From the IMG/VR virus record IMGVR_UViG_2541047839_000003: a DNA stretch of 6,204 bases; one strand, written 5' to 3'. This stretch comes from a virus (taxonomy: Duplodnaviria > Heunggongvirae > Uroviricota > Caudoviricetes). The translations under genes and the position numbers were made by a program. Below the pieces are notes generated by a model that worked only from the letters and a program-made list of their open reading frames with translations, did not search any database and was not told where the DNA came from. Numbering within the stretch: position 1 is the first letter of the stretch; every line of letters begins with the position of its first letter. Positions 2,420-6,046 of the stretch are shown here, in pieces.

Positions 2420-2480
2420 CGGAACAATAACATTGTTCATGTTCTGATCGTTTGTTCAAGCAAACTATAAAAACACCTGT

Positions 2481-2500
2481 CCCCGTGACTGGTCACGGGG
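2481..2500. promoter_or_regulatory. perfect 20-bp GC-rich palindrome (operator or hairpin)
   Basis: CCCCGTGAC-TG-GTCACGGGG is fully self-complementary. It sits between the lipoprotein gene and the promoter-like element at 2521 and is not followed by a T-run on the plus strand. Confidence 0.4.
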
Positions 2501-2520
2501 TAAAATGTCTTTGCAAATTA

Positions 2521-2550
2521 TTGACGTGTGCGTCGTTTTGGAGGTAAAGT
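2521..2550 (+). promoter_or_regulatory. candidate sigma70 promoter of the anti-immunity operon
   Basis: TTGACG at 2521-2526, 18-bp spacer, TAAAGT at 2545-2550; predicted start near 2557. A short palindrome GACGtgtgCGTC (2523-2534) overlaps the -35 and spacer. Hexamer matching only. Confidence 0.3.
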
Positions 2551-2610
2551 CACCTCGCTGCGGTAAATCCCGCAGTCGGGACTTCGCAATCCTGGCAAAA
2601 CGAAGCGCAC

Positions 2611-2634
2611 AACACGCGCCAGCGTGTTTTTTTG
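2611..2634 (+). terminator. intrinsic terminator / attenuator in the operon leader
   Basis: Stem CACGC (2613-2617) / GCGTG (2622-2626) with loop GCCA, extendable by two A-T pairs, followed by a run of seven T (2627-2633). It lies inside the leader, upstream of the structured RNA element and the first ORF. Confidence 0.5.
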
Positions 2635-2664
2635 TGTGTATAGACCTGCGCATATCCGAATTAT

Positions 2665-2743
2665 GGTGGCTCAGGTGGGGCTGACTTCGGTCGGGCCGGT
2701 TTCTTCGTTTACCGGTATTGCGAACCCCGCCTGGGCTACCACC
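2665..2743 (+). ncRNA. candidate C4/CI-type immunity antisense RNA (structured ~80-nt element); boundaries approximate
   Basis: A long-range stem closes the element: GGTGG 2665-2669 with CCACC 2739-2743, CAGG 2672-2675 with CCTG 2730-2733, TGGGG 2676-2680 with CCCCG 2725-2729. It encloses two hairpins: CTGAC-TTCG-GTCGG (2681-2694) and CCGG-loop-CCGG (2696-2715). The second loop contains CTTCGTTT (2703-2710), complementary to AAACGAAG (2598-2605) in the leader and, with one G-U pair, to AAACGGAG (2784-2791) over the GGAG of the next ORF. Confidence 0.35.
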
Positions 2744-2799
2744 AATAAAGAGATTCGCAACTCTGGTGGTAGCACGACCAATAAAACGGAGTGCATACC

Positions 2800-2964
2800 A
2801 TGTTCAAATTCAAATTTGCGGCAGTCGTTCGCACAGACAAAAAGTCCCACATTCATCATCTTTCCACTATCGCGTCATCTGAACGGGAAGCTCGTCGCCA
2901 GTTCGCCAGCCGGTTTGTCCTGGTATTGTCTGCCCGTATTCCGGTGCGCGAGGTGGCTGCATGA
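2800..2964 (+). CDS. Icd-like small protein (54 aa), candidate cell-division inhibitor and first gene of the operon
   Basis: ORF MFKFKFAAVVRTDKKSHIHHLSTIASSEREARRQFASRFVLVLSARIPVREVAA, too short for the supplied track. GGAG at 2788-2791 lies 8 nt before ATG 2800. Its stop overlaps the next start (ATGA at 2961-2964). Size, position and the motif resemble Icd-like proteins as I recall them; not verified by alignment. Confidence 0.55.
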   Translation: MFKFKFAAVVRTDKKSHIHHLSTIASSEREARRQFASRFVLVLSARIPVREVAA

Positions 2965-3194
2965 ATCAGGTAAAAATGAACGCTGTTGGCCTGCTGGAAT
3001 CGTTGGATGAACGTCTGGCTCAGGTCTATGCGCTCGTATCATCAGCCCATCGGACAGTCTCCAGCTGTGAGGCGTCGATTTATCTCTCAGAAGCAGGGAA
3101 ACTCCTTCAAATTGCGTGTGAGTTAACACACGAAGCACAGGGGTATTCAGCATCTCTCTCGTCGCAATTGCAGCACAATAAGGAGGCCAAATGA
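2961..3194 (+). CDS. hypothetical small protein (77 aa), middle gene of the operon
   Basis: Listed ORF; GAGGTGG at 2951-2957 precedes ATG 2961. Its stop overlaps the next start (ATGA at 3191-3194). No family recognised; it occupies the position of an antirepressor accessory gene. Confidence 0.55.
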   Translation: MNQVKMNAVGLLESLDERLAQVYALVSSAHRTVSSCEASIYLSEAGKLLQIACELTHEAQGYSASLSSQLQHNKEAK

Positions 3195-3973
3195 GCGCGT
3201 TAGCTGTATTTTCGTTTCAGGAAGAGCATCAGGTTCGTGTAGTGATGATTAACGGTGAGCCGTGGTTTGTGGCTAAGGATGTATGTGATGCTTTAAGACT
3301 CGTTAATTCCCGGAAGGCGCTAATGTCTCTGGATGAGGATGAAAAGGGTGTAACTTTAAGTTACACCCCTGGCGGAGAGCAAAAGCTAAATATTATTTCA
3401 GAGTCAGGTCTATACACCCTGATCCTCCGCTGCCGTGACGCGGTGAAGCAAGGCACAACAGCTTGGCGGTTTCGCAAATGGGTAACGAACGAAGTCTTGC
3501 CCTCTATTCGCAAAAATGGAGAGTACGTTTACATCGAGCCTGAGCCAATGCGAGCAGCGGAGCCGTTGAACTGGAGGCAGAAAGAGTATCTGCGAGGGCT
3601 GATTAACGATATAGCACAAAGTTTTCAGTACCGAAATGCCTGGATTAGCGGTGTATGGTTAGCTTTGCGTCGGGCGTGTCGTAATCCATCCCCGAACCCC
3701 ATAACGGTTGATGATTTGCCAGCAATTACGGCAGAACTGCGCCGGATTTTGACGGCTGCTGAGTCGGCATTGGGGAACATGCGCACGTATGAACGAGAGT
3801 TGTTGCGTGATGTTGTTCGTGGGGGTAGGCGGAGTATGTCGTGTGGTGATTTACCCATCACCGATATTAACTCTGATCTGGAAAAGGCGTTACCCGCGCA
3901 TTTTGAACTGGCAGTTCAAAAACTTGAGCAGTTATCCGCGCAGCTAAAGCCAGCAGAAATCACCAATAAATAG
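3191..3973 (+). CDS. Bro-N domain protein, antirepressor-like (260 aa)
   Basis: N-terminal ~110 aa (FSFQEEHQVRVVMINGEPWFVAKDVCDALRL ... ESGLYTLILRCRDAVKQGTTAWRFRKWVTNEVLPSIRKNGEY) matches the Bro-N signature seen in phage Ant/KilA-type proteins. AGGAGG at 3181-3186 precedes ATG 3191; stop TAG 3971-3973. Confidence 0.85.
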   Translation: MSALAVFSFQEEHQVRVVMINGEPWFVAKDVCDALRLVNSRKALMSLDEDEKGVTLSYTPGGEQKLNIISESGLYTLILRCRDAVKQGTTAWRFRKWVTNEVLPSIRKNGEYVYIEPEPMRAAEPLNWRQKEYLRGLINDIAQSFQYRNAWISGVWLALRRACRNPSPNPITVDDLPAITAELRRILTAAESALGNMRTYERELLRDVVRGGRRSMSCGDLPITDINSDLEKALPAHFELAVQKLEQLSAQLKPAEITNK

Positions 3974-4109: not shown

Positions 4110-4133
4110 AAGGCACCGTTAATTCGGTGCCTT
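4110..4133. terminator. hairpin between the convergent ant operon and telN, candidate bidirectional terminator
   Basis: AAGGCACCG (4110-4118), loop TTAATT, CGGTGCCTT (4125-4133): a 9-bp stem 12 nt beyond the telN stop. A T-rich tract follows on the plus strand (TTACTGTATGCTTT) and a U/G-rich tract on the minus strand. Confidence 0.45.
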
Positions 4134-4144
4134 TACTGTATGCT

Positions 4145-6046
4145 TTAACCGAAATATGTCAGCCATGCTAACTGCATTGCTGACATGGGGCTGTTTGCAC
4201 TGCCGGACCACGCATAATTCTGGCCATTATAATGAAACTCAACAACGTATGAGCCATCACCAATATTTCTCACCGGCTTAAATACCGGCTTAGATACAGG
4301 CGAAGAAGGTGCAGGCGGTTGCTGTTCTTCTACGCTATCTTCCTCTTCCTCTTCCTCTTCCTCTATCTCAATTTCGTCGTCATCCAGATCGTCATCCTCT
4401 GATAATTCATCCGCCAGTTCAGGTATTGCTTCCAGTTCTTCTTCGTCAGGCATAACGATTTCTGGAGTATCTATTTTCAGTTGCCATTGTCCGTTTTCGC
4501 CAACAAATTGCCCCAGAGCATCAGCAGCAAATTCCAGGTATCGACTAATCATTGTTGGGCTAAATTTGAACGCTCTTAGAGTGCTGTTCGTGATTTTTAT
4601 AGAGGGGTCCTGCTCTACCAGCTGCTTAACTGTGTTATGCAGACGAACCCCGGCATCTCCTCTGGCGAATCCAGGCATTTCGTCATCAAGCTGCTGCAAT
4701 GCTTCCAGCCTGGTATTTTCGTTTCCAGTATTTGGCCTCCATGTCTTTGAGAAGTTGGCCAGCTTGAATTGCTTATAGTGTAATTGAGTGTTTTCATCGT
4801 CATGGCCTAAAATTTCCATAAAGAAAACATCTTCATCTACGTTTTTCCAACGAGGATCTACGCGGAAAAACATTTCATACGCAATACGGGCATAAATAGC
4901 ACGACTATCTTTATAAACACGGCGGTCATCTTTGAAAAATGATTTAACCCACGGGTTAAAAGCCTTTGCTAATATGGCATTAATACGTCCGTTTTCAGAG
5001 CGTGTGTCGTTATCTCCATAACCTTTAACGACATCATCAAAATCAGATGCTGCTGGGCATGAGCGAAGTACATTTATTAAATAAACAAATGTTTTTGCTT
5101 CGCATAATGTATATATTTTTCTGGTTATATTATCAGAAGTTCTTTTTTTAGCTTGGCCTAAAAAATCAACGGTATACTTACCAGAAACAGTAAATGTACC
5201 TTGATACATAATCTCAATCATTCGTCTTCCTGACAATGCAGCAAGTGCAAATGCCAAAGGAGCCATACCTGAACGAGTGTTTAGATTATTTAATGTAGCA
5301 GGGCTATTTATAATATCGTAAATAGCTTGCATATATTTAGGGTAATCAATGACCACCACGTTACGTTTCTTATTGTGCAGAACGTCCGCCCATCGTTGCT
5401 GGATAGATGCACGTTCGGCAGGGCTTAGTTGAAGATGATAGAGAATCTCATGGTTAACTTTTAGCTGATTCAACTCCTCAAGTAAGGCAGATCCTTGCTG
5501 TAGTAATTTATATAAATAATCGCGCTTATCTTTCCAGTTATCGCTAGTTAAATCAGAAATGGCGAATTGCCACTCTTTATATTTATTTGATAATTTCAAT
5601 AACTTATTATGACTTTTGTTATCGCCAATTCTGATATTAGATAAATCTTCTGATAGAGGGAGAATTAATTTTAATTTTGCCTGTAAAGCTGACATTCTCT
5701 GGCGAATATCGGCAGCAGGTAGAGAAAGCCATGACAATAGCTCCTCATTATATAAAGGATACTTTTCAGATAGGCGATGTATATTTTTTTCAAAGCTATG
5801 ATGAAGTTTATCATCAAACCGTTTTCTGGCCCTGCTCATATAGGCATTGAATGTGTTGGCTGTAATTCTTTTTTCTAATCCTTTCCCCCTAAACTTTCGC
5901 TTGTCATTAAATAATGCATTTTTAAATTTTAATGCAACAGCCTTTATTTTTTTTGTTTTCTCCCCTTGAGGACGGTCAGAGTTATCTATTGACTCAACAT
6001 CGCTAACAAGTGAGTTTATTAATTCACCGATTTTTACTTTGCTCAT
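4145..6046 (-). CDS. telN: protelomerase (telomere resolvase), TelN/TelK family, complete, 633 aa
   Basis: The translation is recognisably close along its length to N15 TelN as I recall it (MSKVKIGELIN..., KRITANTFNAYMSRARKRFDDKLHHSF, TRSGMAPLAFALAA.SGRRMIEIM, RSENGRINAILAKAFNPWVKSF, ILGHDDENTQLHYKQFKLANFS). His423-Tyr424 (Tyr codon at 4775-4777) sits where I recall the TelN catalytic tyrosine. The start is preceded by AGGAGAGG on the minus strand; stop TAA at 4145-4147. Confidence 0.93.
   Translation of the reverse strand: MSKVKIGELINSLVSDVESIDNSDRPQGEKTKKIKAVALKFKNALFNDKRKFRGKGLEKRITANTFNAYMSRARKRFDDKLHHSFEKNIHRLSEKYPLYNEELLSWLSLPAADIRQRMSALQAKLKLILPLSEDLSNIRIGDNKSHNKLLKLSNKYKEWQFAISDLTSDNWKDKRDYLYKLLQQGSALLEELNQLKVNHEILYHLQLSPAERASIQQRWADVLHNKKRNVVVIDYPKYMQAIYDIINSPATLNNLNTRSGMAPLAFALAALSGRRMIEIMYQGTFTVSGKYTVDFLGQAKKRTSDNITRKIYTLCEAKTFVYLINVLRSCPAASDFDDVVKGYGDNDTRSENGRINAILAKAFNPWVKSFFKDDRRVYKDSRAIYARIAYEMFFRVDPRWKNVDEDVFFMEILGHDDENTQLHYKQFKLANFSKTWRPNTGNENTRLEALQQLDDEMPGFARGDAGVRLHNTVKQLVEQDPSIKITNSTLRAFKFSPTMISRYLEFAADALGQFVGENGQWQLKIDTPEIVMPDEEELEAIPELADELSEDDDLDDDEIEIEEEEEEEEDSVEEQQPPAPSSPVSKPVFKPVRNIGDGSYVVEFHYNGQNYAWSGSANSPMSAMQLAWLTYFG
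4338..4363 (-). repeat. (CTTCCT)4 hexamer repeat encoding an eight-Glu run in the telN linker
   Basis: TCTTCCTCTTCCTCTTCCTCTTCCTC on the plus strand corresponds to (GAG GAA)4 on the coding strand, inside the acidic segment DDDEIEIEEEEEEEEDSVEE. Confidence 0.8.

Follow-up and report, generated by a model that had tools for sequence, protein, structure and literature searches.

The structured element upstream of the icd gene in the 6,204-nt stretch of viral DNA analysed here (the window) is very probably an antisense RNA of the C4/CA type, belonging to the secondary-immunity operon (immA, 'anti-immunity') of an N15-like linear phage-plasmid; we put the probability of this reading at roughly 0.88. 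The element is an ordinary member of the known family of phage small antisense RNAs that includes P1 C4 and N15 CA. It introduces no new principle: the family, the layout and the mechanisms have already been described for P1/P7 (1990), P4 and N15 (1999). A scan with Rfam covariance models for C4-type RNAs, proposed as a check when the element was first noticed, returned RF01695 (C4 antisense RNA) at 2659-2746 on the + strand with 82.3 bits against a gathering score of 45 (E = 1.2e-15), and the match runs end to end (model positions 1-87 of 87). The window as a whole has the arrangement of an N15-like telomere phage-plasmid, with promoter, leader, terminator, C4-like RNA, icd, antA and antB in succession and telN converging on them. 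Family membership, the fold, the six complementary sites, their co-variation, the gene content and the gene overlaps were all established directly. A further Rfam match in the window, to snoZ196 at 1729-1810, scored 30.4 bits against a threshold of 55 (E = 0.14) and was dismissed as chance.

The antisense RNA, its leader and its operon

The mature C4/CA-type RNA is predicted to be 79 nt long (2665-2743, + strand). Its ends were placed by alignment to the annotated c4 of P1 (positions 3344-3420 of that locus, L016), which lies inside its own Rfam match at 3338-3423. When 2665-2743 was folded alone, it formed a closing stem of 16-17 bp (2664-2680/2725-2741), two internal hairpins (hairpin 1, 2681-2694; hairpin 2, 2695-2716) and a 3' CC overhang. 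This fold has a predicted energy of -47.6 kcal/mol and accounts for 80% of the ensemble (z = -5.7), and none of 200 shuffled sequences folded as well. The stem with two internal hairpins had been proposed from the outset, and it is seen again when the longer stretch 2557-2800 is folded. In the minimum-energy fold the junction after hairpin 2 is single-stranded, as expected of a C4 fold. A tRNA-like 3' end is visible in the sequence, with A2741 paired and followed by CC. By analogy with P1 and P4, an RNA of ~79 nt would be released, its 5' end being cut by RNase P.

The same region could instead encode a small protein, with the RNA features incidental; candidates are an 'ash family protein', a 'cA secondary immunity repressor' or the product of the ORF at 2624-3010. 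In RefSeq records the homologous stretch appears as a pseudogene for an 'ash family protein', with no ncRNA feature, U63086 and AF064539 annotate CDSs at this place, the old N15 record has a 'cA secondary immunity repressor' CDS, and the 128-aa ORF does span 2624-3010. However, NCBIfam contains no family that matches the translation of 2624-2797, the ORF crosses icd in another frame, and the Rfam match is full-length. Across related loci the closing stem is 100% paired with nine compensatory pairs, and hairpin 1 has four more; complete pairing with compensatory double changes shows selection at the RNA level. To judge from the title of the later N15 paper (PMID 10594823), the N15 element was itself subsequently shown to be a small processed RNA. 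We consider a protein-coding function highly improbable.

Transcription of the C4-type RNA probably begins at a sigma-70-type promoter located by a consensus scan at 2521-2550 (+ strand), in which the -35 hexamer TTGACG (2521-2526) and the -10 hexamer TAAAGT (2545-2550) are separated by an 18-nt spacer. The transcript is predicted to start near G2557. Both hexamers are kept at equal distance in all 14 aligned loci, and the P1 hexamers that align with them are those of the annotated P1c4 promoter. The promoter is the equivalent of N15 Pa and of P1 P1c4 (P51b).

The promoter is followed by a leader RNA of the IsrK/seqA type (2557-2633, + strand), in which two hairpins (leader hairpins 1 and 2, at 2557-2576 and 2577-2594) precede a single-stranded stretch and an intrinsic terminator. 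The terminator, found with a terminator scan at 2611-2633 (+ strand), consists of a stem-loop at 2611-2628 (-10 kcal/mol) and a U7 tract at 2627-2633, and the records of N15 and phiKO2 each show an annotated terminator at the corresponding position. The leader matches Rfam isrK (RF01394) at 2557-2632 with 52.8 bits, just over the gathering score of 50; the 13 relatives other than P1 all reach this threshold, with 55-76 bits. Five pairs of leader helix 1 show compensatory changes. The threshold of the c4-a1b1 motif (RF03163), which P1 and four Klebsiella relatives reach, was not reached in the window at 2544-2598 (24.8 bits versus 46.7, E = 0.0047). Despite this low score, both a1 and b1 exist in the window, and the hairpin-2 loop is one base longer than in relatives.

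Three overlapping genes make up the operon downstream of the RNA. The first, icd (2800-2964, + strand), encodes a 54-aa Icd-like cell-division inhibitor, the identity originally proposed for this ORF; it matches NCBIfam NF033153 with 67 bits (cut-off 25), is 94% identical to N15 Icd, and has homologues named Icd in phiKO2, PY54 and RefSeq annotations. Its stop codon overlaps the start of the antA homologue in an ATGA at 2961-2964. The antA product (2961-3194, + strand; 77 aa) corresponds to the N15 anti-repressor gp31, with which it is 65% identical, and falls in PHROG 10889 'anti-repressor'. A second ATGA (3191-3194) joins the antA stop to the start of the antB homologue (3191-3973, + strand), whose 260-aa product contains a Pfam Bro-N domain (E = 1e-21) and is 74% identical to the auxiliary anti-repressor gp30 of N15. 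In the phiKO2 record, Gp28 is described as similar to N15 AntA and Gp27 as similar to N15 AntB. A gene for a telN-type protelomerase with TelK/ResT domains (4145-6046, - strand) converges on the operon. The order of promoter, terminator, small RNA, icd, antA, antB and converging protelomerase is the same in the annotations of N15, phiKO2 and YDC107_1.

Six recognition sites that change in step

The original prediction held that the loop of hairpin 2 is complementary to 2598-2605 and, with one G-U pair, to 2784-2791. Both matches were confirmed directly in the sequence, but the set of sites was incomplete. A second set of matches, a'/a1/a2, is also present and completes the a1b1/a'b'/a2b2 layout of P1. 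The likeness to P1 in having an upstream site, the RNA and a downstream site also holds, as the P1 record annotates a1, b1, c4, a2, b2 and icd in that order.

Within the RNA, the recognition element b' (CUUCGUUU, 2703-2710, + strand) lies in the 12-nt loop of hairpin 2, and a' (AUUGCGAA, 2717-2724, + strand) comprises the whole single-stranded junction from hairpin 2 to the closing stem. The former sits where P1 b' (UCACUAAC) does in the aligned loop, and the latter where P1 a' (CUGUCAA) does. In the leader, a1 (UUCGCAAU, 2583-2590, + strand) occupies the loop of leader hairpin 2 and can form eight Watson-Crick pairs with a'. The b1 target (AAACGAAG, 2598-2605, + strand) is single-stranded, begins 7 nt past a1, can form eight Watson-Crick pairs with b' and ends six bases ahead of the terminator stem. 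Downstream of the RNA, a2 (UUCGCAA, 2754-2760, + strand) is in the loop of a 4-bp hairpin (2749-2752/2761-2764). The b2 target (AAACGGAG, 2784-2791, + strand) pairs with b' at eight positions, one of them a G-U (U2705-G2789). In the icd RBS hairpin it is found in the loop and at the 3' edge, and it overlaps the icd Shine-Dalgarno sequence GGAG (2788-2791), 8 nt before the ATG at 2800. The matches at a1, b1, a2 and b2 are thus 8, 8, 7 and 8 nt long. Binding was estimated from local duplex energies, which gave -23.6 and -21.6 kcal/mol for the duplexes of the RNA with its own targets. When the RNA was cofolded as a second strand with either the leader or the 5' UTR, no intermolecular pairs were produced; the method cannot open or kiss stable hairpins.

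Each of these matches is short, and the first description of the element allowed that they might have arisen by chance; the RNA would then be purely structural and the 8-nt matches without function. Single matches are indeed reached in 0.5-7% of shuffled sequences. Their joint occurrence is another matter: among 20,000 dinucleotide-shuffled versions of the two flanks, 15 contained both b-matches and none contained all four a and b matches together. The motif AAACGRAG occurs in the 6.2 kb window only at the three b places, and three matches, no more, to the composite TTCGCAA-N5-30-AAACGRAG are present, at a1b1, at a2b2 and as the complement of b'a'; 200 shuffles gave none.

We also compared the sites across related loci. 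The 14 annotated phage loci hold at least 10 different a' sequences, yet a'/a1/a2 and b'/b1/b2 are complementary in every locus. An RNA scored against the targets of its own locus averages 30.8, versus 20.8 against the targets of other loci. When pairs were counted, 87.5% of the cells were paired and 32 pairs were changed on both sides, which none of 500 shuffles reached; only ~43% were paired in slid registers. For the individual helices, five of the seven a1-a' pairs (14 loci) and seven of the eight b1-b' pairs are changed on both sides, and the a2-a' helix is 81.7% paired with five compensatory pairs. The column-wise count for b2 is poor (50.5%), the b pairings being in different registers in each allele and not aligned by MAFFT; the b sites were consequently compared across loci by a register-free search. 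The metagenomic contigs of IMG/VR gave 47 real loci by way of Icd, and every one of them follows the pattern. Altogether, some 60 related loci have differing recognition sequences, with all targets changing in step. Conservation of the loop/target complementarity in related elements, which the first reading had named as a test of itself, is therefore found, maintained through different sequences. Because the six sites co-vary, the chance reading is refuted, and we give it practically no credence.

Repression, termination and the role of the leader

The steps by which the antisense RNA may act are modelled on its homologues, as regards RNA processing, repression, polarity and any effect on termination. 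The promoter at 2521-2550, which looks constitutive, would fire from a start near 2557, and most transcripts would probably end at the terminator at 2611-2633 to give a leader of ~77 nt carrying a1 and b1. Transcripts that read through would hold the C4-like domain, which RNase P would cut at its 5' end, as in P1 and P4, to leave a stable RNA of ~79 nt. The released RNA would expose b' in the loop of hairpin 2 and a' in the junction, and in trans, possibly also in cis, would pair with a2 and b2 on the operon mRNA. The icd gene would then go untranslated because b2 covers its Shine-Dalgarno sequence. Given the ATGA overlaps that link icd to antA and antA to antB, the block of icd translation should extend to the anti-repressor genes, by translational coupling together with transcriptional polarity, as it does in P1. 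In addition, a' and b' may pair with a1 and b1 ahead of the terminator, where they would either reinforce premature termination, following the N15/P4 model, or allow leader and RNA to titrate each other.

The original prediction that the RNA both occludes the ribosome-binding site and controls termination through the leader fares differently in its two parts. Occlusion of the icd RBS follows directly from the geometry and from the P1 precedent: C4 blocks ant expression by pairing around the RBS (PMC12197685), and structurally similar IsrK-C4 systems are at work in P1, P7, N15 and P4 (PMC3632133). That the leader site serves to control termination can only be inferred from N15 and P4, and our search of the leader for an antiterminator, that is, a structure that C4 binding could disrupt, gave no convincing candidate, the only hit being a 4-bp GCGC/GCGC hairpin.

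A stricter form of the termination model would have the RNA control termination only, by pairing with nascent a1b1 and perhaps a2b2, and would regard RBS occlusion as incidental. The N15 CA RNA reportedly elicits premature termination at the Rho-independent terminator Ta. The title of the N15 paper (PMID 10594823) and papers that cite it place the anti-repressor under the control of a small RNA released by processing. In P4, CI works through termination (PMC3632133), and the position of b1, six bases ahead of the terminator stem, is conserved. However, the terminator is predicted to form unaided. Its hairpin is present in every leader fold, with a1 and b1 blocked or free, so the folds lend no structural support to C4-dependent termination. 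Moreover, b2 overlaps the Shine-Dalgarno sequence in all 14 annotated loci, and the P1 record annotates the b2 pairing as a site of translational repression. The terminator also lies upstream of the RNA gene, so that the RNA is made by read-through only. We regard control of termination alone as unlikely.

It is also possible that the leader serves as a decoy, following the logic of IsrK. The terminated leader (2557-2633), which would be abundant, would bind a' and b' in cis or in trans, with no control of termination, and as an anti-antisense RNA would free a2, b2 and the icd RBS and activate the operon. The balance of leader and C4 would set anti-repressor expression, a scheme compatible with C4 repression at a2 and b2. 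The leader belongs to the IsrK family, and its a1b1 stretch could form with b'a' a nearly continuous duplex of ~23 bp, the one predicted at -23.6 kcal/mol. A parallel is the isrK-orf45(STnc1160)-anrP locus of Gifsy-1 in Salmonella, which like the window has an IsrK leader with a terminator, a structured region and an anti-repressor gene (PMC4825925). There, translation of anrP rises about 140-fold when IsrK is provided in trans, and the compensatory mutants G28A/C162U and G31A/C159U prove that the leader pairs with a conserved downstream region, from which a processed RNA exists (PMC4825925). Going by coordinates, the mutant positions appear to fall on a1 (+27 to +34) and a' (+161 to +168) in the transcript predicted for the window. 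From these coordinates and the published description we infer that helix b-I of Gifsy-1 is equivalent to the a1b1-a'b' pairing. In addition, 'orf45' is conserved as nucleotides and not as amino acids (PMC4825925), which would be expected if 'orf45' were a C4 RNA.

The logic reported for Gifsy-1 nevertheless differs from that of the C4 family. In this lambdoid prophage, which has no icd, the short leader activates in trans and 'orf45' is translated (PMC4825925). The activation of anti-repressor translation by IsrK in trans, more than 100-fold, gives the a1b1 module the opposite sign, and binding to Hfq and action in trans on its own read-through transcript are IsrK traits known only for Gifsy-1 (PMC4825925). 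The activation was seen on over-expression, and for N15-like phages it would hold by analogy. Genetically, the C4/CA/CI RNA is a repressor in P1, P7, N15 and P4, and seqA is needed to establish P4 immunity, which points to a repressive role of the upstream site (PMC3632133). We consider a decoy role of the leader less likely than not.

The region between the RNA and icd holds a further structural feature, a switch segment (GGUGGUAGCAC, 2765-2775, + strand) that can enter two mutually exclusive helices. Its positions 2765-2773 can pair with 2735-2743, the 3' arm of the C4 closing stem (96.8% paired, five compensatory pairs). Alternatively, positions 2767-2775 can pair with 2791-2800, from the Shine-Dalgarno sequence to the icd AUG (87.2% paired, six compensatory pairs; not reached in 500 shuffles). 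The resulting RBS hairpin is the minimum-energy fold of 2744-2815. Two mutually exclusive helices that both co-vary show a structural switch around the RBS, a point in favour of the decoy leader. They can also be combined into a more elaborate scheme, in which the locus would be an all-RNA switch with three states and combinatorial specificity. The terminated leader, with a1 and b1, would titrate the C4-like RNA, and the choice of partner by 2765-2775 would tie access to the icd RBS, in cis, to whether the C4 domain folds or is excised. The a and b modules would reassort independently among N15-like phage-plasmids and so generate a two-key code of anti-immunity groups; one b loop was found with four different a' sequences. 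We found no description of the alternative helices or of modular reassortment in the accessible literature. This scheme is speculative, and we hold it to be rather doubtful as a whole.

Relation to known immunity systems

Taken as a C4/CA-type antisense RNA, the element is closest to the CA RNA of N15 and its immA operon (icd-antA-antB; Ravin, Svarchevsky and Deho 1999, PMID 10594823). The gene order is shared, DNA identity is ~80%, and the window proteins are 94% (Icd), 65% (AntA) and 74% (AntB) identical to those of N15. Both loci reach the Rfam thresholds for C4 and isrK. The recognition elements, in contrast, differ: a' is AUUGCGAA in the window and GUUGAGAA in N15, b' is CUUCGUUU in the window and CUUCUUGU in N15, and all four window targets carry the matching changes. 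Cross-duplexes with N15 are predicted at -12 to -15 kcal/mol, about 10 kcal/mol weaker than those of each RNA with its own targets, and the two RNAs are therefore probably not cross-reactive. The window RNA is predicted to be a hetero-specific allele relative to N15. As elsewhere in the C4 family, it would repress anti-repressor synthesis in trans and set the specificity of immunity.

With the immI C4 system of P1/P7 (Citron and Schuster 1990; RF01695), the window shares the layout of a1-b1, c4 (b', a'), a2-b2 and icd. In both P1 and the window, b' is in the hairpin-2 loop, a' is in the junction, b2 is at the icd RBS and the genes downstream are translationally coupled. The spacing is also similar, with an a1-b1 gap of 7 nt in both and an a2-b2 gap of 22 nt in P1 and 23 nt in the window. 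On the other hand, all recognition sequences differ, the P1 anti-repressors Ant1/Ant2 are unrelated to AntA and the Bro-N protein AntB of the window, and a C1 operator is present near the promoter of P1, in its promoter region. The leader of P1 passes the c4-a1b1 threshold and falls short of that of isrK, the reverse of the window. P4 was compared by description. Like the window, this satellite phage, with its seqA, seqB and seqC, has a small RNA, CI, processed from a leader transcript, with complementary sites upstream (seqA, IsrK-like) and downstream (seqC), but its premature termination controls a replication operon rather than an icd-ant operon. The CI/seqA/seqC system has been described as a structural homologue of IsrK and C4 (PMC3632133, PMC4825925). 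BLAST with the Rfam isrK consensus did not find Gifsy-1 in the phage collection, and BLAST with the C4 consensus did not find P1; P1 was compared from its own record.

These results locate the RNA switch that would silence both the anti-repressor and the cell-division inhibitor Icd in one lineage of N15-like linear phage-plasmids. As its recognition sequences are unlike those of N15, the lineage is predicted to form a separate specificity group of secondary immunity, which bears on derepression between co-resident or superinfecting telomere phages. The lineage is common in E. coli, E. albertii, E. fergusonii and Klebsiella, and an identical 331-bp region is present in at least 12 plasmid records.

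C4-type RNA, leader and target sites

Folded alone, the segment 2665-2743 gave an extended closing stem that encloses two hairpins; this fold has an energy of -47.6 kcal/mol and z = -5.7 and makes up 80% of the ensemble. This is the shape described in the original prediction, which had also placed the ends of the element exactly where we predict those of the mature RNA by alignment to the annotated mature P1 c4 RNA. The Rfam scan proposed there returned a full-length match to RF01695 (C4 antisense RNA) at 2659-2746, which scored 82.3 bits (gathering score 45). The leader (2557-2632) matched RF01394 (isrK) at 52.8 bits versus 50, and the c4-a1b1 model reached 24.8 bits in the window, below its threshold of 46.7. 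A sigma-70-type promoter (2521-2550; TTGACG, 18 nt, TAAAGT) lines up with the promoter annotated as P1c4 in P1, and the leader terminator is intrinsic, a stem-loop at 2611-2628 followed by a U7 tract.

In the loop of the second hairpin, b' (2703-2710, CUUCGUUU) is the exact complement of b1 (2598-2605, AAACGAAG), six bases before the terminator. It also pairs, via one G-U, with b2 (2784-2791, AAACGGAG), which contains the GGAG 8 nt before the icd ATG. All three had been recognized previously, and every feature of the original prediction was found at the coordinates given there. A second set had been missed: a' (2717-2724, AUUGCGAA) makes up the entire 8-nt junction and is complementary to both a1 (2583-2590, UUCGCAAU), located in the hairpin 2 loop of the leader, and a2 (2754-2760, UUCGCAA), located in that of a small downstream hairpin. 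In the P1 record b' lies in the loop of hairpin 2 and a' in the junction after it, with a1 and b1 upstream and a2 and b2 downstream. The proposed likeness to P1 extends to both sets and to their spacing, the a1-b1 gap being 7 nt in both and the a2-b2 gap 23 nt here and 22 nt in P1.

The original prediction had cautioned that complementarities of only 8 nt could be due to chance. This caution does not stand. AAACGRAG occurs only at the reported sites within the whole window, and when the flanks were dinucleotide-shuffled 20,000 times, the two b matches arose jointly in 15 shuffles and all four a and b matches in none. The composite motif TTCGCAA-N5-30-AAACGRAG occurs exactly three times, as a1b1, the complement of b'a', and a2b2 (0 of 200 shuffles).

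A C4 match was found in all 14 annotated phage loci compared: N15, YDC107_1, five Klebsiella telomere phages, PY54, an Aeromonas telomere phage, three lambdoid/Stx phages, a P2-like phage and P1. It is preceded by an IsrK-type match in all but P1, whose leader passes the c4-a1b1 threshold instead; both RNAs are already annotated in one Stx phage record. Apart from the separate c4-a1b1 covariance threshold, which it does not reach, the element shows all the testable features that define the C4/CA family and an N15-type immA (secondary-immunity) operon. It represents a new member, predicted to be hetero-specific, of an already known RNA family.

Co-variation and specificity

Co-variation across loci is the decisive test. 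The 14 loci carry 10 or more distinct a' sequences, and b' also comes in many forms. Within each locus, a1 and a2 pair with the local a' over 7-8 Watson-Crick pairs, and b1 and b2 with the local b' over 6-11 pairs; the weakest, PY54, carries an identical single internal mismatch in both b targets, as read by eye. The mean pairing score was 30.8 for each RNA with the targets of its own locus, compared with 20.8 for those of other loci. Base pairs were also counted formally on a MAFFT alignment for the helices of leader and C4 and for the a1-a' and b1-b' contacts: 87.5% of cells were paired and 32 pairs had changed on both sides. The co-variation score was 0.443, versus 0.19 for shuffles (0 of 500 reached it) and ~0.1 when partners were slid by 1-3 columns. 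The a2-a' contact was 81.7% paired, with 5 compensatory pairs. Further loci from IMG/VR, found via the Icd protein, were self-consistent in 47 of 47 cases (38 parsed correctly by script; L037, which the script misread, and eight that it left unparsed were judged by eye); one hit of this search, L065, is not a real locus. Loop/target complementarity is kept in both the 14 and the 47 loci, so the lack of conservation in related elements that the original prediction named as counting against it is clearly not what is seen.

The RNA differs from that of N15 at two positions in a' (GUUGAGAA in N15) and two in b' (CUUCUUGU in N15), with matching changes in all four targets. Predicted duplex energies were -21.6 to -24.3 kcal/mol when either of the two RNAs was paired with its own targets and -11.9 to -14.8 in crosses. 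From these energies and the matched target changes, cross-reaction between the window allele and N15 is unlikely. P1 and P7 are heteroimmune, and the difference from N15 parallels theirs. Among N15-like elements the a and b modules (window 2703-2724; loci L018-L064) reassort independently. The b loop of the window, UUUCUUCGUUUA, was found with four a' sequences (AUUGCGAA, AUUCUCAC, GUUGAGAA and AUUCCUAC), and a' AUUGCGAA with three different b loops. There were 18 a/b combinations among 39 script-parsed IMG/VR loci, and the targets always fit their own RNA.

Predicted repression of icd and the leader contact

Directly from the sequence, b2 covers the icd Shine-Dalgarno, and a1 and b1 lie immediately upstream of the intrinsic terminator. 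In P1, the C4 RNA pairs with a2 and b2 and so represses translation of icd and, as a consequence, expression of ant (P1 record; PMC12197685). In N15, control of the anti-repressor is attributed to a small RNA that is cut from the leader of the operon (PMID 10594823; PMC7567579; PMC3632133). The P4 CI RNA, a structural homologue, is reported to bring about premature termination via pairing with seqA and seqC. Taken with these precedents, the sequence features make repression of icd-antA-antB by a processed ~79-nt RNA the most likely function; it would act chiefly by ribosome-binding-site occlusion and polarity.

The original prediction had given the RNA a dual role, occluding the ribosome-binding site and controlling termination in the leader. 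The position of b2 agrees with the first part. As to the second, the terminator hairpin (-10 kcal/mol) was present in all folds and unchanged when a1 and b1 were blocked, and no structural basis for C4-dependent termination was seen in leader folds with a1/b1 free or blocked. In Gifsy-1 the homologous short leader RNA IsrK activates a downstream anti-repressor in trans by pairing with a conserved downstream region (PMC4825925), which by its coordinates appears to correspond to a'b' here. Since the terminator is predicted to form unaided and IsrK activates, the a1b1 module may serve as a target for termination or as a decoy, or fill both roles. The proven IsrK pairs G28:C162 and G31:C159 (PMC4825925) fall at the transcript positions of a1 (+27 to +34) and a' (+161 to +168) here, and in 'orf45' of Gifsy-1 nucleotides are conserved and amino acids are not (PMC4825925). 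This match, made by published positions, together with the nucleotide-only conservation suggests that 'orf45'/STnc1160 may be a C4 homologue and IsrK its a1b1 decoy.

Segment 2765-2775 can form two mutually exclusive helices. In the first, 2765-2773 pairs with the 3' arm of the C4 closing stem (2735-2743; 96.8% paired, 5 compensatory pairs over the 14 loci). In the second, 2767-2775 pairs with 2791-2800, from the end of the Shine-Dalgarno through the A of the icd AUG (87.2% paired, 6 compensatory pairs over the same loci); the 5' UTR adopts this helix in its minimum-energy fold. Their mutual exclusion suggests a structural switch in cis, in which folding or excision of the C4 domain is tied to how accessible the ribosome-binding site of icd is; we found no description of such a switch in the accessible literature. 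Only the alternative helices and the modular specificity might repay further work.

Source element, genes and annotation

The window comes from an N15-like linear phage-plasmid. Escherichia phage PhiR46_1 has a stretch 100% identical to 2500-2830, as do no fewer than 12 plasmids (~46 kb) of E. coli, E. albertii and E. fergusonii; the N15 immA region has ~80% identity to 2440-3200. On the plus strand, icd (2800-2964; NCBIfam NF033153, 67 bits) encodes a product 94% identical to N15 Icd. It is followed by homologues of antA (2961-3194; 65% identity to N15 gp31; named AntA, anti-repressor, in the phiKO2 record) and antB (3191-3973; Bro-N domain, 74% identity to N15 gp30, AntB). The three ORFs are linked through ATGA overlaps and, judged from sequence, are translationally coupled. 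They converge on a minus-strand protelomerase ORF, telN (4145-6046), with all four protelomerase domains. Between antB and telN lies an inverted repeat, AGGCACCG-TTAATT-CGGTGCCT (4111-4132), where the phiKO2 record has a putative bidirectional terminator; it was not called in our terminator scan because it is without a T-run.

In identical public plasmid records the C4 RNA is without an ncRNA feature, and RefSeq/PGAP calls an 'ash family protein' pseudogene over it (window 2624-2746, compared with 1625-1747 of L017 and 413-715 of L002, two related records). Old N15 records place a 'cA secondary immunity repressor' or gp32 CDS over the RNA. Translation of the C4 region gave no NCBIfam match, and these protein calls are probably spurious calls on an RNA gene.

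Full-length antB in the window encodes 260 aa. In PhiR46_1 and pEC21Z151-46K (L004 3692-3856, L017 2192-2356) it is cut to a 54-aa Bro-N fragment abutting telN, despite a 100% identical upstream regulatory region. Directly upstream of the immA promoter, a plus-strand ORF (1607-2419; 270 aa) has 35% G+C versus 47-50% in its flanks and a lipoprotein-like N-terminus (LLLSGC). Its product had no Pfam or PHROG match, and in PhiR46_1 its place is taken by another small ORF, which bears the annotation 'Spackle'. The window ORF is thus probably cargo that can be exchanged. Several IMG/VR contigs (L019/L021, L033/L034, L043/L044, L046/L047, L054/L056) and plasmid records of 60-90 kb carry two inverted copies of the locus. 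Because immA adjoins telN and telL, these are probably the product of an assembly that ran on through the covalently closed hairpin telomere, or of head-to-head dimers.
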